A DNA stretch of 64,000 bases from Nitrospirota bacterium (GCA_963796285.1 CAWCKW010000006.1:128001-192000); one strand, 5' to 3'; shown: positions 4,399 through 15,268, counted from the stretch's first letter. Program-made: numbers and translations. Notes: generated by a model from the sequence alone, not told the origin.

Positions 4399-4508
4399 AC
4401 TTATGTTACTATGTAAAAAAACGCTTGAAATCTAGACATTAGTATGGTTTAATGATTTAGTTGTGTTGGCTGCAGTCCGGGCAGCGTAATAAGTGAGGAG
4501 ACGCAGAC

Positions 4509-5003
4509 ATGCTGGGTTCCGATTTGGTGATGTATGATGAAGAATTTAAGCAGATAGACGCCGAACTTCAGCGCCTCCTTGCCCAGGCGAATGCAAAGGT
4601 GGTATTCCTTGTTGATAAGAACGGCCAGCTGATCGCAGCCACCGGCGAGACCGAAAACCTGGACACCACGTCGCTCGCCTCTCTTACCGCCGGAAATATT
4701 GCGGCCACCGGCGGTATGGCAAAGCTTCTCGGTGAGAAGGAGTTCTCTATTCTTTTCCACGAAGGCGCGCGGGACAATATTCATATCTCCATCATCGGCC
4801 AGCGGGTCATCCTGGTGGTGATCTTCGACCAGCGTTCATCGCTTGGTCTTGTACGGCTCCGGGTCAAGAAGAGCGCAGAGATACTGGGCAGCATATTCGG
4901 CCAACTCCTTGTGAAAGTAGAAACAGAAAAGGGTTCTGGCAAAGCAGCAGATTCCCCCTTTGCAGAGATTACCGACGAAGATATTGATAAACTCTTCGGA
5001 TAA
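4509..5003 (+). CDS. mglB: MglB roadblock/LC7 GTPase-activating protein
   Basis: [48 protein letters not shown]. Confidence 0.95.
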
Positions 5004-5053
5004 CCCAACCTCAAATATTCCCTGCGCTCAGTAAGGAGAGGAATTACCGTCCC

Positions 5054-5650
5054 ATGTCTTTTATTAATTATTCATCGAGAGAGATCAACTGCAAAATCGT
5101 TTACTACGGCCCGGGCTTGTGCGGGAAGACCACCAACCTGCAGTGGATCTATAAAAAGACCAATCCCGACAGCAAGGGTAAGATGATCTCCCTGGCTACC
5201 GAGACCGAGCGGACACTATTCTTCGATTTTCTCCCGCTCGCCCTTGGTGAGATCCGCGGTTTCAAAACCCGGTTCCATCTTTACACCGTACCCGGCCAGG
5301 TATTCTACGACGCGAGCCGGAAACTGATCCTCAAAGGTGTGGATGGCGTGGTGTTCGTAGCCGATTCGCAGATCGAGCGTATGGAGGCAAATATCGAGAG
5401 TGTCGAGAACTTGCGCATAAACCTGGCGGAGCAGGGCTATGATCTTGATAAACTCTCCTATGTCATCCAATACAACAAACGGGACTTGCCGAATGTCGTG
5501 CCACTTGAAGAAATGAAAAAAGCGCTCAACCCTAGAGGCCTTCCGGACTTCGAAGCCTGTGCAGTGGACGGGACCGGCGTATTCGACACGCTCAAGGCAA
5601 TTGCAAAGCTGGTTATCATGGAGCTGAAAAAAGGCCAGGAAGTAGGATAG
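5054..5650 (+). CDS. mglA: MglA small Ras-like GTPase
   Basis: [35 protein letters not shown]. Confidence 0.97.
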
Positions 5651-5744
5651 GGTTCGTTGCGGAATGCGGATTGTGCAAAGCGGAACGAAGAACAAGCACT
5701 ATCGCTGGCCTCATAGAGACGATGGTTTCCTCGTAAATAACCCA

Positions 5745-5773
5745 TTGACAGAACAGGTTTAATGTGGTATTTT
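5745..5773 (+). promoter_or_regulatory. Sigma70-type promoter of tRNA-Asn
   Basis: TTGACA-17 bp-TATTTT with extended TG. Confidence 0.65.
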
Positions 5774-5804
5774 TCCAGCCTGATTTCCTTCCCAAAACCG
5801 ATAT

Positions 5805-5880
5805 TCCCGGATAGCTCAGCTGGTAGAGCGGGTGGCTGTTAACCACCATGCCGCAGGTTCGAGTCCTGCTCCGGGAGCCA
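5805..5880 (+). tRNA. tRNA-Asn (GTT)
   Basis: 76 nt cloverleaf: acceptor TCCCGGA/TCCGGGA, anticodon arm GGTGG-CTGTTAA-CCACC, GGTTCGAGTCC T arm, encoded CCA. Confidence 0.97.
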
Positions 5881-7476
5881 ATCAAGTCCAAAACTGGGCA
5901 CTCTCCCTCTCATTGGGGATCGGGTGCCCAGTTTTTTTCCTGCAATAGCCGCAGCCAGCGCCACATGACTTCCACGGACACAGACCCTGTTGCCCTCGAC
6001 CTTGATTTCATCCACAAGCAGCCTTAAATACTCTTTGCCGAACGAAGGGGAGGACTTATCCAACAGCTTGCGTTTCAACGACGAGCAGAAGGCATTGACA
6101 TGGCCCGGTTTGATATGATCCAAAGGCAACTCTTGTTCACGCCGCAGACCCGCGATTTCTGTTAATATTTCTTGCCGTCTGGCTTGATGCTTGTGGACTC
6201 GCTCCTGTAAGGTAACATCCAGCGGCAGCAAACCTTTCTCAACAGCCTCATACAGACGATCAGACTGGGTTTTGAGGTTATCCAGTTCTTTTGTTAATGC
6301 TTTCAACTGGTCATTGTGCGAGGAGCCGGATTTCTTCTGAGCATGTAACAATTCTGTCAACATGGTTTTGACTCGCTCAGGTTTAAAGACGCGATCCGCG
6401 ACAGCCTGTAATACAAGACCGTCCAGTTTTTCCATAGGGATATTATTGCTCTGGCAGGTCTTGCTTCCTATCTGGTTGATCCGCGTTGAACACTTGTAAT
6501 AGTGATACTTCCCGCTCTTGCCGGTTGCAAGGGTCATCCTTGCCCCACACTCCCCGCACCGAAGAAGGCCGGTCAGAAGGGTAGGAGAATTCACGATCCG
6601 AGGCGGCACCTTTGCCGGAGAACGGTCAACGCGGCGCTGAGCTGCGAGGTTGAAGGTCTCAATGTCAATTATCGGCTCTACAGCAATCTGCACCCATTCA
6701 GATTGAGGCTTGCGCTTTCTGGTTTTCTTTTCAGTTTTATTAAAAAAGTATTCGCCAACATAGGTTCGATTGGCAATGAGGTCATAAACAAGAGTCTTGT
6801 TCCACTTTCTGCCTCGCATAGTAATGCCCCGGTCATTAAGAAGGGAAGCAACGCCCTTTACTCCGAGCACCCGGCCTTGATGACCGTACAGATACAGCTT
6901 GAAAATATCCTTCACTATGGTTGCTTCTAACGGGTCTATTACAAGTTGTTTCTTATTACCTCTTCTACCTTGCAGCGGAAATTCTTTCGTTCCATAGCCG
7001 TAAGTAGGTTTTGAACCGTTAAAATAACCTTGCCGTGCGTTCTCTTTCATTGCGCGAAGTGTGTGTTTCGAGTTTTCCTTGCTCTGATACTCATCGAACA
7101 AACCGAAAATGCCCCTTGCCATCTCGCCGGCGGAATCATCGCCTGTTTGTTGAGTGATAGAGATTAAGTTGACTCCGTGTTTCTTTAGACGTCGATCATA
7201 AATGGCAAGCTGGACATGATCCCGAAAGAATCTCGAAAGACTATGCACGATTAACGCACTATATGGAGCAGGCTCGGCGCAGGCATCGGAAATCATTTGC
7301 TGAAATACCGTCCTTTTGTCATCCATGGCCGAGGCTCCCGGCTCGATATATTCCAACGCCACACTGTGGCCATGCGCCTTGCACCACTCACGCATTTGAC
7401 GCAGCTGATCAGGAATAGATAAATCTTTCTCAGCCTGTCTACTAGTTGATACTCGTGCATAGAGAGCTACTAACAT
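5839..7476 (-). CDS. Large serine recombinase (integrase)
   Basis: YARVST catalytic Ser, SRFFR, recombinase domain, zinc ribbon (CGECG...YYKC...C), coiled coil; GAGGAG RBS before ATG 7476; C-terminus read from antisense tRNA. Confidence 0.93.
   Translation of the reverse strand: MLVALYARVSTSRQAEKDLSIPDQLRQMREWCKAHGHSVALEYIEPGASAMDDKRTVFQQMISDACAEPAPYSALIVHSLSRFFRDHVQLAIYDRRLKKHGVNLISITQQTGDDSAGEMARGIFGLFDEYQSKENSKHTLRAMKENARQGYFNGSKPTYGYGTKEFPLQGRRGNKKQLVIDPLEATIVKDIFKLYLYGHQGRVLGVKGVASLLNDRGITMRGRKWNKTLVYDLIANRTYVGEYFFNKTEKKTRKRKPQSEWVQIAVEPIIDIETFNLAAQRRVDRSPAKVPPRIVNSPTLLTGLLRCGECGARMTLATGKSGKYHYYKCSTRINQIGSKTCQSNNIPMEKLDGLVLQAVADRVFKPERVKTMLTELLHAQKKSGSSHNDQLKALTKELDNLKTQSDRLYEAVEKGLLPLDVTLQERVHKHQARRQEILTEIAGLRREQELPLDHIKPGHVNAFCSSLKRKLLDKSSPSFGKEYLRLLVDEIKVEGNRVCVRGSHVALAAAIAGKKLGTRSPMRGRVPSFGLDWLPEQDSNLRHGG
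5873..5882 (+). repeat. attL core (3' end of tRNA-Asn)
   Basis: GGGAGCCAAT identical to 11192-11201. Confidence 0.85.
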
Positions 7477-7637
7477 AGTGTTTACTCCTCTTCTTGAGAG
7501 CATTGTATAAGAACATCTTTTATTATATCCGATAAATGTGATTGCAAAAGCCTGACCTCATTTTCAGTTATACGATCATTAGATAACTGGATATCGACTT
7601 CAATTATTATCGGCTCAGGTTTCCTCTTTTCGCTCAA

Positions 7638-7865
7638 TCATGGCGCACCGCCTTCTTTGCTCAATGTCCTGCCCGATCCGTCCCATTCCTGACCACATGT
7701 TACCCGTGTTAACTCTTTTACAAGCCCATCTCTGCCAAATTCGCTTAATACAAGCAAACGAAATGTAGAATATTGACTCGGTGTTAATGGCAATAATTCG
7801 GCATAACGTAGAATATTCTTTAGTCGTGCGCTGACGAGGTGTTCTATTTGCTCTTTAGTTACCAT
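7638..7865 (-). CDS. 75-aa hypothetical protein coupled to rep (candidate directionality factor)
   Basis: ATG overlaps rep stop (ATGGTAA); lies between rep and integrase. Confidence 0.6.
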   Translation of the reverse strand: MVTKEQIEHLVSARLKNILRYAELLPLTPSQYSTFRLLVLSEFGRDGLVKELTRVTCGQEWDGSGRTLSKEGGAP

Positions 7866-8950
7866 TTTCCCAGTTGCATTTCCTTGACACGCCGCTTCAC
7901 TTCCACATCCCAATCAAGGTATTCATGAACCCTACGCAGCTTCAGCCCGAAATGATCCAATGCCGCTTTATATCCAATGACCGGCAGACCGGATTGAATA
8001 CAATAAACCGCACCGACTCGTTTTAAATAGCCGTACATCGCGATGACCATGCGCATCATGCGTTCTTCTAAAATAGCTTCATCGTCGTAAGCATTGCACA
8101 CGCCGAGATGATTCAACATTCCGATTTCTTTCTGTAAGTCTTGCCATAAAGGATGAAGCGGCCAGCGGGATCGGTGGGAATCTCCGTTTGATTGCCTCAG
8201 AGTATCATGTTCATGAGAAAGATAACGCAGCAGGTCGCCATGCTGTCCTTGCAGGTCGTCGAAAGACACTATGCCGAAGCGCTTTAATATTGCCTTCCTA
8301 ATCTGCCATTCAATGCGCCAGACATTTTCCTTTTGTCCCCATAAGTTAAAGAACCAGACCTTGCCGCTCTCTTGCTCGATTTCAGCGACCTTATCATAGA
8401 CGCGAAGCACAATATCACCTTTGCCGAGAGTGAAAGTCTGCACCTTGCCGTTTTCACGGTGCTGGCTGTCCTTCCTAGAACGACTGACAAAACTATCCAA
8501 ATTAAAATCAACAAGAGGCAGATTATAATCAAAGGTGAAATCCACGCGGGAGAGCTTTTCCGATATAATTGGCTCAAAGCCGATAGACCTGGCCCACGAT
8601 AAAAACTTATCGTGCAGGATAAAGGCCGATTGACGCCAAAGCGCTGCGCTCCTAAACGTAACGTAAAAATTAGGCGACATGAATTCGCTGATCTCTATCT
8701 TGAAATCATTGTTTACAATAACGAAGGTATAGCCGGAGGATGTTCCGTAAGGTTGTAACAGAAATTCAGAATCGCCGAGCTTCACAGGCAGAGGATGTTT
8801 CCTTTTCGATTGACGAATTGTCTCTTTTTGCTCAGCAAGCCTTTGGAAATCGAGGCCCGACTGCCCTGCACTCTGAAGGTAATAAGCGCATTGAACGGTA
8901 TCAAGACCATGAAGAATTAATTTGATTTTATCTACAGTCATTTTAATCAC
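7859..8950 (-). CDS. Rep_trans-family replication initiator/relaxase
   Basis: GLDTV, LSRVDFTFD, TFTLG, LRVYDK (catalytic Tyr), WRIEWQIR. Confidence 0.88.
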   Translation of the reverse strand: MIKMTVDKIKLILHGLDTVQCAYYLQSAGQSGLDFQRLAEQKETIRQSKRKHPLPVKLGDSEFLLQPYGTSSGYTFVIVNNDFKIEISEFMSPNFYVTFRSAALWRQSAFILHDKFLSWARSIGFEPIISEKLSRVDFTFDYNLPLVDFNLDSFVSRSRKDSQHRENGKVQTFTLGKGDIVLRVYDKVAEIEQESGKVWFFNLWGQKENVWRIEWQIRKAILKRFGIVSFDDLQGQHGDLLRYLSHEHDTLRQSNGDSHRSRWPLHPLWQDLQKEIGMLNHLGVCNAYDDEAILEERMMRMVIAMYGYLKRVGAVYCIQSGLPVIGYKAALDHFGLKLRRVHEYLDWDVEVKRRVKEMQLGKW

Positions 8951-8985
8951 TAAAGTGAATGCTCATTAACTTCGCAAGCATTTTC

Positions 8986-9291
8986 TTATTTATTCTTCTT
9001 AGTTCGCTTCTTAATCTCCGGTTCGTTTTTCTCTTGACCAAATAAGTCCAGGACTTTATTTGCAGCTTCTTCATTCAAACCAAAAGCCTTCATGATTTTC
9101 GGTCTCATATATCTATGGACTTCTAAAAGGTCCGGGTTATTCTTAAGAATTCGTTTTAACTCCCGGTTATCGCTTGTTGATGCGCATATCATCACCCAAC
9201 GAGCAACCGCAGACATACTAATCTTTCGTGGTAATTCACGAGCCGCAGCATAGCTAGAATCGTCTAAGTATATGTTAGTTCTTACTGCCAT
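8986..9291 (-). CDS. Ribbon-helix-helix (CopG-like) regulator
   Basis: N-terminal RTNIYLD strand then helices (ISMSAVARW); GGAGGG RBS before ATG 9291; first gene of rep operon. Confidence 0.65.
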   Translation of the reverse strand: MAVRTNIYLDDSSYAAARELPRKISMSAVARWVMICASTSDNRELKRILKNNPDLLEVHRYMRPKIMKAFGLNEEAANKVLDLFGQEKNEPEIKKRTKKNK

Positions 9292-9331
9292 TGATTCACC
9301 CTCCCTTGGTTTATCTATACCACACGTAGCA

Positions 9332-9360
9332 ACATTAACACACATGACACACCTTGTCAA
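9332..9360 (-). promoter_or_regulatory. Promoter of RHH-rep operon
   Basis: Minus strand TTGACA-17 bp-TAATGT; spacer contains repeated GTGTGT (possible operator). Confidence 0.65.
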
Positions 9361-9416
9361 GCAAGAAATAATTAGTAAGTTCAGATATGGCTATAATAGA
9401 TAAACCCAGGCACACT

Positions 9417-9449
9417 GGCCTTCCCCTCGCTTCGCTCCGGGGAGTGGCC
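9417..9449 (-). other. GC-rich hairpin, candidate single-strand origin
   Basis: GGCC-TCCCC...GGGGA-GGCC arms with GAGCGAAGCGA on minus strand. Confidence 0.45.
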
Positions 9450-9547
9450 TCTTCCGACGTAATTCTAAACAATTATTGACATATATCAACAAACGTGATT
9501 ATATATCCTTGTTTTATAACACTGACCAGAAGGAAGATGGATTTATC

Positions 9548-9572
9548 ACCCCCCGTGTTACTGATCCGGGGG
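9548..9572 (-). other. Candidate double-strand origin/oriT nick site for Rep_trans
   Basis: Minus strand CCCCCGGATCAGTAACACGGGGGGT: poly-C/poly-G stem around TAACA, as in Tn916/ICEBs1-type nick sites. Confidence 0.7.
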
Positions 9573-9653
9573 CCGAAGGCGCAGGATGTTAGGCATTCTT
9601 CTTGCTAAACTGGTAAAGAACGAAAATTCGTGCTTTACTAGCCATGTGCGGCT

Positions 9654-9672
9654 AGATAATCACTGGTTAGTC
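9654..9672 (+). other. attI-like cassette insertion site
   Basis: AGATAAT (L-like) + 5 bp CACTG + G/TTAGTC core. Confidence 0.65.
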
Positions 9673-10607
9673 CGGAGTAAAAAATGAGATATTCAATAAT
9701 AATTGCTATCTTGCTTTATAGCACGACATCGTTTGCTGAAGACCCGCAATTGTCGGCAGACAAAAAATTGGCTGATCTATTATTCCCATCAGAAAGCAGC
9801 GTCCAACTGGAACAATTTCCCGTGCTAACGGAAGCAGAATTCAATCCAATTAAGGATAAGGTTTTTAAACAATTAGATTCAGATGCCTGTCACATTATTT
9901 CCACTAGCGACACACCGCACGAGTTCTTCCGTAAATATGATTTGTCTGGTGCTGGTGTTGATGATGTGATTCTAAGTTCCTATTGTGCGGCAATGGAATA
10001 TAGAAACTTTATCTGGTTTCGCAAGGGGAATTCATTAAAATATGCCGGCTTCATGTTGGGCACGCCGTTAAAATATTACCGCCCCAGTAAGTCGGAACCT
10101 TATTCAATTGTAGTAAGTGAAGGTTGGTGCTGTGCAGGTTTTGTCGGCAAAATCAGCCTCTACAAACTGAAAGAAAATCGTGGGCTTTATAAATATAAAC
10201 TTGAAAAAAGAGTAATGGAATGGGGCGGAATCACAATTCCTGACAAACGAATAGCCCCCGTTAAGTTTAAAATTAAGTCTGAAAAATACGCCCTAAGAGA
10301 TTCGCCGGAAATTCGTAACGAACCAATTGACGACATTCCTGGCGGGAAAAAACAAATCGGAAATATTATCGCGGAATTTCCACGTGGTAGCCAGGGAGAG
10401 GCAATAGCAGCGGATAAAGACAAGACAGGCCAGATCTGGTGGTTTGTTCTGATGGATAAAGATTCAAAAACCATCACTACTCTTTTTTATGCCGATAACG
10501 GAGCTTATAAAGCTGGATGGATGAGACAACAAGATCTTGAAATAGCCAAATGAAGACCAACCAGTCGTTCGAGTCCCGCGCTCTACGGCGCGGGGCTCAA
10601 CTCGTCG
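9667..10607 (+). mobile_element. Integron gene cassette 1
   Basis: Starts TTAGTC, single ORF with RBS, ends in attC whose GACCAAC is near-complementary to GTTAGTC. Confidence 0.85.
9684..10553 (+). CDS. Secreted hypothetical protein, C-terminal SH3b-like region
   Basis: Signal peptide MRYSIIIAILLYSTTSFA; C-terminal LRDSP...IAEFPRG...WWFV...GWM pattern. Confidence 0.8.
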   Translation: MRYSIIIAILLYSTTSFAEDPQLSADKKLADLLFPSESSVQLEQFPVLTEAEFNPIKDKVFKQLDSDACHIISTSDTPHEFFRKYDLSGAGVDDVILSSYCAAMEYRNFIWFRKGNSLKYAGFMLGTPLKYYRPSKSEPYSIVVSEGWCCAGFVGKISLYKLKENRGLYKYKLEKRVMEWGGITIPDKRIAPVKFKIKSEKYALRDSPEIRNEPIDDIPGGKKQIGNIIAEFPRGSQGEAIAADKDKTGQIWWFVLMDKDSKTITTLFYADNGAYKAGWMRQQDLEIAK

Positions 10608-10613
10608 TTATCT
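10555..10613 (+). repeat. attC site (59 bp)
   Basis: GACCAAC-5-GTTCGAG-TCCCGCGC..GCGCGGGG-CTCAAC-5-GTTATCT; extrahelical C in L''. Confidence 0.92.
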
Positions 10614-11145
10614 CCCCAAGTTGAAGGAAGGGGTCACACCATTAATACTGAAACAGCTCAACAGAATAGAGAACTTCGAGGAAATCCATACGACAAGTGG
10701 CTTGTCTGGGGTCCAGTCCTCGCAGGCGCTCTGTTGCCATACACGATATATACTCTATTCAATCCAAAGTTCCTGCTAGATATAGCCAAAACACCAGATG
10801 AGCTTGTGATTATGAGCATCGGCGCGATCATTTCTGATATTCCTTTCTTCGTTGTAGCCTTTTTCGCAAACGGTGACAAGAGTCGTAATTATAATCTGAG
10901 AAGGCGAGTTAGCAATACTGCCATACGATTCCTACCTGTATTCGGAATATATGCCTTTCTGCTTTATGATGTAGCAAGGGCAGCTGCTCTTAGACTGCCA
11001 GGTGCGTCAACGGCACCGATCGCTTTATTAATATTCCTGCCAATTGCCGTGTTGCTCGTATTTGTATTACAGCTGATCACCAAAGCTATTGAAAGATAAC
11101 CTGGCGCTCGACTGCGACGCGCAAAGTCGGCGCGTCAGCGCCGCG
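10608..11145 (+). mobile_element. Integron gene cassette 2
   Basis: Starts TTATCT; inverse core AGATAAC is the exact complement of GTTATCT and contains the ORF stop codon. Confidence 0.88.
10641..11099 (+). CDS. Hypothetical integral membrane protein (~4 TM), probable ATT start
   Basis: Frame is open upstream of TTG 10734 to ATT 10641, which follows AAGGAAGGGG; hydrophobic segments. Confidence 0.7.
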   Translation: MNTETAQQNRELRGNPYDKWLVWGPVLAGALLPYTIYTLFNPKFLLDIAKTPDELVIMSIGAIISDIPFFVVAFFANGDKSRNYNLRRRVSNTAIRFLPVFGIYAFLLYDVARAAALRLPGASTAPIALLIFLPIAVLLVFVLQLITKAIER

Positions 11146-11151
11146 TTAAAG
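11094..11151 (+). repeat. attC site (58 bp)
   Basis: AGATAAC-5-GCTCGAC...GTCAGC-5-GTTAAAG; extrahelical C. Confidence 0.9.
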
Positions 11152-11191
11152 TGTGATTATTTCATTCCATTGCCCTGTTTCATCATGTCCG

Positions 11192-11201
11192 GGGAGCCAA
11201 T
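11192..11201 (+). repeat. attR core
   Basis: GGGAGCCAAT repeat of tRNA 3' end. Confidence 0.85.
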
Positions 11202-11206
11202 TTTAC

Positions 11207-11237
11207 AAAAAAACCAGAATTCAATTCTGGTTTTTTT
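11207..11237 (+). terminator. Bidirectional terminator, probably the displaced tRNA-Asn terminator
   Basis: AAAAAAACCAGAAT-TCA-ATTCTGGTTTTTTT immediately after attR. Confidence 0.75.
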
Positions 11238-11535
11238 CATTTAACGATGAGCCACCGGATATACCTTCTTCAGAGCGAAACCAGAGACCGACATTATTGC
11301 GGTTTTGCAAAGGGTGCTCATCGTTGATTACAAACACCTCAACGACCCGAAGCATCAAGGAATTATGACCACAAAGAGATTTTAGGAATAGTGGTGCACG
11401 CGTTGGTTTGAAAAATGCAAAAGAAATGCGTTAGCAGTATGCGAAAGCAAGTCAAAGTGTAACTAAGAACGCTCGACCATCACGTGACTATGTCCTGTCC
11501 CAGCATGGGCCGGAATACGGACAGCACTAGACAGG

Positions 11536-12240
11536 TCATATGCCAAGACCGGCATGCGATTTGGGTGCATTTGTATCTATATACGCTTCCAAGGTCTTTG
11601 CTGCTTCAGGAGGAAGGTTTAAGAAGTGCACGCCATACCAATTGGCATCAACTCCCGGCACCGGTTGGATGATCCTGATGATCTCTCCTGTTAGCTGGAT
11701 CTGTGTCGTGTTGGGCAGGAAGAACGAGCAGGAGAGCCTGTCGCCTTGGTTGAAGGTCTGGATAGTTTCAATGAGCATTCCGGCAAGGCTGATATCCAGG
11801 GAGTTACAGACAAAGTGGTTGGTGCTAACAGTCCCTTCAACGGCAACGTTGAGAAGCACTCGGTATGTTTCTCTCCAGGAGAGATTAAGGAGTGTTTTTG
11901 CCTGTGCCAGAAGTTGGGCGGGTTTAAAAGGTCGAGTAATAACGGCTTCTGCTTTGCAGTGCGAGCTCTGTTTGAGTGCGCTCTTGGTGTTTGCACAGAC
12001 TAGGATTATGGATACTGGACTGTGTTCTGCATACTCCCTGAGAAGAGAGCAGAGCTGCTCAATGCCCATCCCCGGCATGTCAAAATTTATAATAATGAGG
12101 TCAGCGCGCACCGTGCGATGGATCTGCAGCACTTCATCAGTTGAGGCCGACGTGAATATCCGCATATCCGCCCGGTCTAAGAAGGTGTTTTTTTTCCTGA
12201 GTATCGTGTTTATGTCCTGATCAAGGATTATTTTTTTCAT
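11536..12240 (-). CDS. Pseudo-receiver + PilZ domain protein
   Basis: REC-like N-terminus (DLIIINFDMPGM, TRPF); PilZ RETYR and DISLAG motifs, YGVHF. Confidence 0.85.
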   Translation of the reverse strand: MKKIILDQDINTILRKKNTFLDRADMRIFTSASTDEVLQIHRTVRADLIIINFDMPGMGIEQLCSLLREYAEHSPVSIILVCANTKSALKQSSHCKAEAVITRPFKPAQLLAQAKTLLNLSWRETYRVLLNVAVEGTVSTNHFVCNSLDISLAGMLIETIQTFNQGDRLSCSFFLPNTTQIQLTGEIIRIIQPVPGVDANWYGVHFLNLPPEAAKTLEAYIDTNAPKSHAGLGI

Positions 12241-13109
12241 GGCTCAATTTCCAGGGTTCAGTCAACATTTGGTTGCGGCCAATCATGATTGACAAGCATA
12301 CATGACCGATTTCCCCTAACCCTTGCACAATTATTATAGCAGTAACATAATTATATTGTCAAGCATAGAAAATGAAACAGGGGAAACAGTTATGTTTTAG
12401 GTTATATTAAAGCAAGCAGGGCTACGGCATTCTTATGCAGCATGATAACTTGTATCTGCCTTGATTTCTTCAGCTTCACAACGCTGCCGTGTAGTGACAA
12501 CATAGTAGCACAATTAAGATCAGGCTATTTCCTTTGACTGCTGCTATTCGGCACTATTTGCAAATCAGAGAAATCGTTGAAGACTTCTTTTAACTCTTCA
12601 AGAAACAAGTAGGCCCGCTTATTCTGCTCAGTCACACATCTGTACTCGTGCTCTGTGTTAACATGCATCTCACGCTTTGATTTCGAGACTTATTCATGTT
12701 TGTATAGTTGATCCTACAAAAGTTTTCATCGGATCCAGACGCCCGCATAGCGAACCACACCTCGTTGCCTTGCGCGAGCATCTTAGTTCACTCGGGGAGA
12801 TAATAAGGCTTGCGATCCAGCCGGTTATGGCGAGAGCAACTTCTGTTTTGCGCAAGAGCGGTCATTTTTTAATGAAAATGGACTATTGCACACCGTCACA
12901 GATAGTATTGAAGGGAAGGAGCGCAATAAAATCATCAGCGCTGCTTTATGCTCTTCGGATGATAGTGCAATTCGTGTTGAGTTGCAGCGTCCGTTTTTCG
13001 TCGGCCTGCGGTTCGGATTTATCGGAGGAGGCAGATTGTATTCGTCAGAACACTCCCGGCTAGGTTCAAAGAATATAATGAGATGGATATCATCAGAACC
13101 GGAAAACAC

Positions 13110-15268
<2,159 letters not shown>

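Follow-up and report, generated by a model that had tools for sequence, protein, structure and literature searches.

We analyzed a 64-kb stretch of a Nitrospirota genome (GCA_963796285.1, CAWCKW010000006.1:128001-192000; hereafter the window, in which all coordinates are counted), which lies on contig C6 of the assembly that we call G000. At the 3′ end of a tRNA-Asn gene, the window carries a small integrative element whose backbone encodes a large serine recombinase and a divergent Rep_trans-like protein, and whose cargo is an array of two gene cassettes with attC sites, the recombination sites of integron cassettes. Seven open reading frames (ORFs), five of them on the minus and two on the plus strand, lie between the copies of a 10-bp direct repeat, and G+C falls from ~0.55 to 0.41–0.49 across the region. 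The features are as follows (G001 and G004 are congeners of the host and G008 and G065 other members of its bacterial family; R1 and R2 are attC covariance models described below):

5805–5880, plus strand: tRNA-Asn (GTT), the integration target (ARAGORN; Rfam tRNA, 69.4 bits)
5873–5882: left direct-repeat copy GGGAGCCAAT, attL core (repeat scan; attB of G004 and G001)
5839–7503, minus strand: large serine recombinase, 554-aa ORF (Pfam PF00239, PF07508, PF13408; phrog_95 integrase, 2.8e-106)
7482–7637, minus strand: small ORF of 51 aa (tblastn match in 6 of 87 related loci)
7638–7913, minus strand: conserved small ORF of 91 aa between Rep and recombinase (tblastn match in 40 of 87 related loci)
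7859–8950, minus strand: divergent Rep_trans/Phage_CRI-superfamily protein of 363 aa, hereafter Rep (homologs, AlphaFold model, Foldseek, Pfam on homologs)
8986–9291, minus strand: putative small regulator, 101 aa from an internal ATG, the ORF reaching 9360 (weak RHH_1/RHH_3 leads)
9537–9573: backbone hairpin A, stem 9550–9555/9567–9572, loop with GTGTTAC (motif in 63 of 80 loci)
9585–9672, plus strand: motif B, head-of-array element of ~80 nt ending in GTTAGTC (copies in 30 of 64 genomes; position relative to attC)
9684–10553, plus strand: cassette 1 ORF, 289 aa, with a signal-peptide-like N-terminus by eye (homologs attC-flanked in G008 and G065)
10555–10613, plus strand: attC site 1 (R1, 48.3 bits, E 1.2e-12; R2, 39.6 bits)
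10734–11099, plus strand: cassette 2 ORF of 121 aa, judged hydrophobic by eye (a single weak homolog in the bacterial family)
11094–11151, plus strand: attC site 2 (R1, 57.4 bits, E 1.4e-15; R2, 60.1 bits)
11192–11201: right direct-repeat copy, attR core (repeat scan; BLAST; empty sites of G004 and G001)
11207–11237, plus strand: terminator hairpin of the tRNA gene (perfect 15-nt inverted repeat)

A bounded insertion at the tRNA-Asn 3′ end

The 10-bp repeat belongs to a longer stretch that is identical at 15 of 19 positions. Its left copy covers the tRNA-Asn 3′ end, which is rebuilt by the left end of the element, and its right copy is followed by the 15-nt inverted repeat with its T-run. By its sequence and position we take this inverted repeat to be the original terminator of the tRNA, moved 5.3 kb by the insertion; the same hairpin stands directly after the tRNA in G004 and G001.

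A repeated 10-mer is not unusual by chance in 7 kb of sequence, and the insertion is therefore proved by empty sites. Window 4400–13700 was compared with 40 relatives and the result re-examined by BLAST. In G004 and G001 the tRNA continues straight into the sequence from window position 11192 onwards, the element being absent (the empty sites read ...CTCCGGGAGCCAAATTA..., and the left flank of G004 is 96% identical to the window), while in a third congener, G002, this tRNA is occupied by an element of 80% identity, on a contig that ends inside Rep. Assembled contigs of four public metagenome runs (X1–X4), placed on the region at a likeness setting of 88, contain the same joint: 5872 passes into 11192 over 10 shared letters in five contigs, with all four runs represented. 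In run X1, pieces of the element with at least 99% identity occur together with an empty-site contig that differs at 2 positions in 314 nt; parts of the element have no contig cover in X2–X4. Window 5882–11191 is a discrete insertion, a small integrative element at the tRNA-Asn 3′ end. The initial annotation of this DNA had drawn a mobile element of 5.3 kb between the repeat copies and had called for a search for the empty attB; the boundaries were confirmed, and the empty site was found both in relatives and in all four runs.

Just inside the left end, in the 3′ tail of the recombinase ORF, window 5885–5945 forms a terminator-like hairpin with a T-run (AAAACTGGGCAC...GTGCCCAGTTTTTTT), which is kept in G002 and in a further relative, G023, and may act as terminator of the tRNA transcript while the element is integrated. 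To the right of the element low G+C persists to ~13000, and G004 is without most of window 11262–12861, including a PilZ-domain response-regulator gene (11536–12240); this gap may be a second, older indel beside the tRNA hot spot.

Two gene cassettes and no integron integrase

By consensus, attC sites have an inverse core RYYYAAC and a core GTTRRRY at their ends. We built the covariance model R1 from 14 sites in arrays adjoining the integron-integrase gene intI of relatives, none of them from the window and three of them found through similarity to window attC site 1; in the training alignment R'' and R' pair as expected and the L stem covaries. A second model, R2, was built from 36 sites. Over the 64 kb, with filters off, R1 returned only two attC sites, both full-length and exactly those at 10555–10613 and 11094–11151 that the initial annotation had proposed, plus the reverse strand of one of them at E 0.57, and R2 matches the same two. 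Site 1 reads GACCAAC...GTTATCT and site 2 AGATAAC...GTTAAAG, the AAC/GTT triplets being exact and the outer positions imperfect. A fixed-mismatch genome scan for attC cores returned only the window's own sites, loop lengths being different, and was replaced by the covariance models.

The sites and one of the genes also have counterparts elsewhere. Site 1 has copies of 90–98% identity in five relatives, site 2 is nearly identical in type to the attC beside the host's own intI remnant (L001, below), and the same attC types occur in relatives' arrays that adjoin intI. Homologs of the 289-aa protein are attC-flanked in G008 (44% identity, the fifth cassette of a complete integron) and in G065 (35% identity, on a contig with a stop-interrupted intI match). 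Neither cassette protein has a match in Pfam, PADLOC, PHROGs, or NCBIfam. From models, cores, and homologs together, we regard both as cassettes with genuine attC sites. The cargo had been described as consisting of two cassettes only; the cassettes are there, but the hairpin at 9550–9572 and the head motif at 9585–9672 precede them.

No integrase accompanies the array. TIGR02249, the IntI model, has no match in the element, the window, or the rest of contig C6, as the initial annotation had stated for the first two, and G000 as a whole encodes no intact IntI: all six of its matches are on another contig, C12, the best being a 203-aa fragment of 225 bits against a cut-off of 265. Whereas a complete integron has intI beside its array, the array in the window fits the description of an attC-site cluster that lacks integron-integrases (CALIN), given in PMC9024848 as at least two attC close together without an integron-integrase nearby: its two sites are 481 nt apart, its cassettes share one orientation, and no intI lies in the window. 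Across the entire genome R1 has 14 attC matches at E<=0.01, several of which form small clusters, so that the host is full of integrase-less cassettes.

Three other places on C12 illustrate this background. An integron remnant at C12:1310516-1311784 (L001 1495-2763) consists of an N-terminally truncated intI (203 aa, model positions 123–313), a two-gene cassette resembling a toxin-antitoxin or addiction module, and an attC of the window site 2 type; a second integrase fragment (C12:424968-425848; TIGR02249 positions 267–313, 52.5 bits) lies beside attC matches at 424968 and 425530; and a cluster of three attC sites spans C12:1657313-1660439. IntI scores above the curated cut-off in 28 of 64 genomes of the host's bacterial family. 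There it occupies open frames of ~440–560 aa (L069 804-2276 and others), and the length of the 490-aa ORF in G008 points to about 170 extra N-terminal residues ahead of the usual IntI core.

Backbone proteins of the element

The recombinase matches PF00239 (Resolvase, 2.5e-26), PF07508 (Recombinase, 3.6e-17), and PF13408 (Zn_ribbon_recom, 3.9e-17), three domains that substantiate the serine recombinase first annotated here; its nearest NCBIfam models are CcrB and CcrC, both below cut-off. Its last ~45 codons pass through attL into the tRNA, and similarity to the family stops near residue 509. Homologs such as L082 show the same geometry, with a recombinase match that extends over the coordinates of the tRNA.

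Rep has no Pfam match at 0.01, its only lead being Phage_CRI at E 0.022. Of its 1104 homologs, 120 were listed, none of them with a functional name; the nearest (P0001–P0006) range from 95% down to 67% identity. When 24 homologs were scanned singly, 14 matched PF02486 at E<=0.1 (best 2.6e-6) and 12 matched Phage_CRI, and a profile built from the 24 hit only 4cij among PDB sequences (E 0.18). Foldseek with the AlphaFold model of Rep (pLDDT 84.6) also ranked 4cij chains best (E 4.6e-11, probability 1.0, TM 0.53 on the target), with TATA-box-binding proteins next. The 4cij entry was deposited as a rolling-circle replication initiator from Geobacillus stearothermophilus. On predicted fold and homologs we assign the window protein to the Rep_trans superfamily, and not to PF02486 by the curated threshold, so that the Rep_trans claim of the initial annotation stands for the superfamily and fails for the Pfam family on the protein itself. 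Rep is a putative rolling-circle initiator and/or MobT-like relaxase, the relaxase activity being one that we infer only; four tyrosines are invariant (Y23, Y185, Y243, and Y308).

The ORF of 101–124 aa next to Rep had been called an RHH protein, which we could not confirm: it has no match in Pfam, PHROG, or NCBIfam, and only weak atlas leads to RHH_1/RHH_3 at 0.87. By ORF list and Pfam, the seven ORFs of the element comprise an integration module and no conjugation genes.

A widespread element family with a variable cargo slot

We fetched 80 loci with Rep homologs (43–66% identity) from genomes whose record titles name Geobacter, Desulfuromonadales, Nitrospira, Nitrosomonas, Dechloromonas, Methylophilus, Mariprofundus, and others, spanning several phyla. 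A homologous serine recombinase lies a few hundred bases downstream of Rep in 73 of the 80. Among 60 loci scanned for a tRNA abutting the recombinase gene, tRNA-Asn was found in 30 and tRNA-Arg in seven. Direct repeats of at least 10 nt at the tRNA end, present in 14 of 37 related loci, are short and delimit the elements tentatively, suggesting sizes of ~4.4–7 kb. A scan of metagenomes for close Rep relatives returned four distant loci only.

The window's hairpin A belongs to this backbone. In 63 of the 80 loci the strand opposite to Rep carries a motif TGTAT-N-CCCCCGTGTTAC-N-CGGGG, 380–1330 nt upstream of Rep; the sequences diverge right beyond this motif, and the cargo genes are directed away from it. 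Judged by this pattern, hairpin A is the boundary between backbone and cargo, and it is probably a double-strand origin or oriT for Rep, for which we propose it as a candidate. The interpretation of the hairpin region (9537–9593) as an attI or half an attC was dropped because the same hairpin lies upstream of Rep in those 63 elements, whose cargo is unrelated.

Ten cargo proteins from nine elements were scanned: six have no Pfam match, three are reverse transcriptases (RTs), two of which fit retron models, and the remaining one is a defence-type kinase. Individual slots hold a retron-type RT with a nucleoside deoxyribosyltransferase (NDT), an RT-protease, another RT, and a PD-T4-6-like kinase (loci with RT or kinase cargo: L087 4946-7002, L139 5643-7361, L112 1047-2681, and L088 4967-6085), and the family looks like a small vehicle of anti-phage defence genes. 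One Azonexus hydrophilus contig has two Rep/recombinase copies ~18 kb apart; tRNA-Asn abuts the recombinase gene in one (L114), and the sole tRNA-Asn of the other (L115) is ~5 kb beyond it. Comparison of these loci indicates that the backbone represents a widespread element family whose cargo slot, directly behind the hairpin, is variable.

A conserved motif heads the array

Between hairpin A and cassette 1 lies motif B, copies of which occur in 30 of the 64 genomes of the bacterial family. For 29 copies, one per genome, 17 of 18 attC matches are downstream on the same strand; 20 further copies gave 19 of 19, for a total near 49 copies and 36 of 37 matches. Similarity between copies ends at the terminal GTTAG core, which is GTTRRRY-like. 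In four integrons B stands beside intI, between promoter-like sequence and the first ORF, and the three full-length IntIs next to B form one clade (100/100 support) apart from eight without B, a split that holds even within G052, which has a second integron without B. This link concerns one clade and is in effect one event. We rejected a role of B as attI for all integrons of the bacterial family, since it is absent beside intI in 8 of the 12 informative loci. A clade-specific attI role is possible, and from these positional patterns we put at roughly even odds the candidate interpretation that motif B is an attI-type site of one IntI clade.

The motif could instead be a cis-regulatory 5′ leader RNA, riboswitch- or attenuator-like, for genes of exported proteins, which would leave the array without an attI; we regard this as possible but on the whole doubtful. 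Such a role would account for a B hairpin that covaries (10 cells changed on both sides, a score reached by 0 of 500 shuffles), for two overlapping alternative stems, and for what is seen by eye, namely a sigma-70-like promoter just upstream of many copies and signal-peptide-like starts of several ORFs; the eight informative integrons in which intI has no B beside it are also in its favour. In the window, TTGACA is seen by eye on the plus strand at 9476–9481; it was not called by the promoter scan, and promoter and terminator counts were not above those of shuffles. The long B hairpin (H1) has no support beyond shuffles. However, B as mere cassette content predicts attC on both sides, and the attC lie almost entirely downstream; homology between copies stops precisely at the core-like end; the motif tracks one IntI clade, even in the two-integron genome; and Rfam has no family for B, its only match in the window being the tRNA.

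Different cassettes behind a fixed junction

The junction from hairpin A to B recurs at tRNA-Asn 3′ fragments in five genomes of four genera: in G023, in G006 (twice), in G067, in G047, and at a second place in G000, on C12. Behind it lie two attC in G023 and three plus two in G006, in cassettes that share no protein with those of the window; no attC matched at the G067 and G047 loci, the first having only 676 nt downstream and the second a truncated B. Since G023 and G006 hold other cassettes at the same junction, the array has diversified behind a fixed point. This lends support to the expectation that different cassettes would occupy the same slot, here behind one backbone-to-array boundary.

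Five loci (L017 1600-3420, L073 1100-9000, L021 1247-1480, L172, and L173) have the order tRNA-Asn 3′ fragment, ~200 poorly conserved bases, hairpin, and B, with cassettes where readable and without Rep or recombinase. Loci with this combination of tRNA-Asn fragment, hairpin, and B may be non-autonomous derivatives. One X3 contig joins 9573 to 11142, skipping B and both cassettes, and also skips 9410–9536; it may come from a relative without cargo.

Outside this lineage, R1 found no attC in the 80 homologous loci. Among 84 foreign Rep loci R2 gave one full match (L138; 26.4 bits, E 0.006) and one partial match. L138 is a Nitrosospira element; its attC comes after two small ORFs of the cargo slot and is oriented as in the window. 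In detail, L138 5354-7400 comprises the hairpin, ORFs of 63 and 65 aa, and one canonical-looking attC (6743–6801); a 421-aa tyrosine recombinase gene directly after it probably belongs to a neighbouring island. From these scans attC cargo appears confined to the window's lineage and one Nitrosospira element, and the proposal of a cassette shuttle as a class of element had to be given up, with attC at E<0.01 in 1 of 84 foreign loci and other cargo that includes retrons and kinases.

These figures also bear on whether the cassettes are inert passengers, acquired in a single attC x attG insertion or as a captured fragment of a decaying integron, with no link to Rep or single-stranded DNA (ssDNA) and no exchange. 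The 83 foreign loci without attC at E<0.01 and the null result with R1 are what such a history predicts, as are a host littered with integrase-less attC (14 R1 matches and two intI remnants) and the unrelated cargo of the family members examined; moreover, small two-cassette CALINs are proposed, in 10.1101/2022.09.11.507474, to arise by insertion into genomes. Three observations nevertheless make us consider it unlikely: the array begins with a motif that heads arrays elsewhere, the hairpin-to-B junction is shared by five genomes of four genera with cassettes that differ where readable, and the same slot of the Nitrosospira element contains a second, independent attC cassette in like orientation.

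A proposed explanation and its weak points

Taken together, we think it fairly probable that the window holds a small integrative element whose slot carries an integron module without an integrase. In this explanation the large serine recombinase would insert the element at the tRNA-Asn 3′ end, with the crossover inside GGGAGCCAA(T); the insertion itself is observed, and the enzyme's family and position suggest it as the agent. Rep probably nicks the hairpin at 9550–9572 and would thereby either replicate the excised circle or mobilize the element as a MobT-like relaxase. In the window lineage, the slot would hold an integron module made of B, probably an attI-type site, followed by two attC cassettes that appear to be drawn from the cassette pool of the bacterial family. 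The element could not move the cassettes itself, and their turnover would need IntI from a host integron; with only intI remnants in this host, the array is therefore likely to be frozen cargo here. The element might use IntI in trans and replicate itself, and the ssDNA of rolling-circle replication might favour folding of attC.

Several observations count against this explanation. The hairpin-plus-B loci of G023, G006, G067, G047, and C12 of G000 lack both Rep and recombinase, so the differences between cassettes could postdate immobilisation. No circle (attP) junction is listed among the assembled contigs of the four runs, though contigs cannot show absence. The C-terminus of the recombinase depends on the integrated state, its reading frame entering the tRNA, and no recombination directionality factor was identified. 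Window Rep has no match to PF02486 up to E 10, and an intact Rep occurs in only 3 of the 64 genomes of the bacterial family. Motif B reaches nine copies per genome, also in genomes without an IntI match; it stands beside intI in only 4 of the 12 informative integrons, and these four were chosen because both matches lay on one contig; and the covariation of its hairpin would fit an RNA leader as well. Finally, the attC models derive from the host's bacterial family, and attC of distant lineages could be missed.

It is also conceivable, in our estimate with rather low probability, that recombinase and Rep are both inactive and the element is dead, with empty sites that reflect ancestral absence and not current excision. 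The missing circular junction, the recombinase frame that extends into the tRNA, and derivatives without recombinase and Rep that outnumber intact elements in the bacterial family would all fit. However, all five backbone ORFs are intact, the nearly identical empty site of run X1 coexists with the >=99%-identical pieces of the element, and homologs such as L082 have the same frame through the tRNA. RS1 of CTXphi is a satellite of a filamentous (ssDNA) phage, and an element of that kind, with a helper inovirus packaging Rep-made ssDNA circles, would agree with the Phage_CRI matches of the Rep family (12 of 24 homologs), the small size, the regulator-Rep gene order, and the lack of conjugation genes, yet Pfam and PHROG scans revealed no coat, Zot-like, or ssDNA-binding gene (a helper phage was not looked for), and we consider it very improbable.

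The integrative element with an integrase-less integron module can be extended into a bolder proposal, which we offer as a long shot. B would be a new class of attI, and the bacterial family would keep up to nine attI-headed integrase-less arrays per genome, one of them on a mini-element whose rolling-circle or transfer intermediate would expose the attC bottom strands (the same strand as rep). The cassettes would be ferried between hosts and traded with resident integrons through IntI in trans, and the Rep-less loci would be non-autonomous derivatives moved by the proteins of a full element.

Relation to known systems

Much of the setting is in print. CALINs have been defined and counted (PMC9024848) and reported on phages and plasmids, including a prophage CALIN with its own attI (PMC9892861, PMC9024848); IntI-mediated insertion of cassettes outside att sites is described, with the suggestion that small CALINs arise in this way (10.1101/2022.09.11.507474); and integron-carrying IMEs (integrative and mobilizable elements) are known, as are IMEs and integrative and conjugative elements with Rep_trans/MobT proteins that both replicate and mobilize (PMC5704250). 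The initial annotation had suggested that the present combination might be a class not yet described, and in view of these reports (PMC9892861, PMC9024848, PMC5704250, 10.1101/2022.09.11.507474) that is too strong. We found no description of the carrier family, or of a serine-recombinase/Rep_trans element with a CALIN, in a literature search that left subscription journals and supplementary lists of contexts and att sites mostly uncovered, where cases may be held.

The array resembles a CALIN, as set out above, but it is carried by a serine-recombinase/Rep_trans element of 5.3 kb at a tRNA gene, and it has its head motif in common with many other integrase-less arrays of the bacterial family. 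With streptococcal IMEs and MobT elements of the Tn916/ICEBs1 type the element shares an integration module joined to a Rep_trans-superfamily protein, small size, and variable cargo (PMC5704250). Such IMEs and MobT elements come from Firmicutes, with direct matches to PF02486, whereas the window's family has non-Firmicute record titles, tRNA-Asn or tRNA-Arg targets, its own hairpin, and a Rep too divergent for such a match. SGI1 and MGIVchHai6 are likewise mobilizable islands with integron cassettes as cargo (PMC5704250), but their integrons are complete, of class 1 type, and include intI, and their own integrases are tyrosine enzymes, unlike the integrase-less array and serine recombinase found here. 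Serine recombinases are reported in <1% of the genomic islands delimited in 10.64898/2026.01.13.699239. An attC x attG insertion, producing a single attC without integrase (SALIN) or a small CALIN, explains one or two cassettes in non-integron DNA (10.1101/2022.09.11.507474), but the left boundary of the window array is a conserved head motif and not a bare GTT in unrelated DNA.

Staphylococcal cassette chromosome (SCC) elements are comparable in their recombinases, CcrB and CcrC being the nearest models, though below cut-off, and in insertion at the 3′ end of a conserved gene; short direct repeats are a further feature that SCC shares with it. The window element differs in having no ccr pair, another target, a much smaller size, and a Rep protein.

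The principle that integrase-less arrays travel on mobile DNA is known, and the window element leaves it unchanged. What the locus adds is a case in which integron cassettes, with an apparent insertion site, are carried by a very small self-integrating element that is not a plasmid, transposon, or phage, which offers a concrete and testable route for cassettes between genomes that differ in the presence of an integrase. Its most promising aspects are the element family and head motif B. The family, with its tRNA-Asn or tRNA-Arg targets, serine recombinase, divergent Rep_trans-like protein, and conserved hairpin, is apparently undescribed. If B is an attI, it would be a candidate for a new attI class and would explain why integrase-less arrays are so numerous in this bacterial family.

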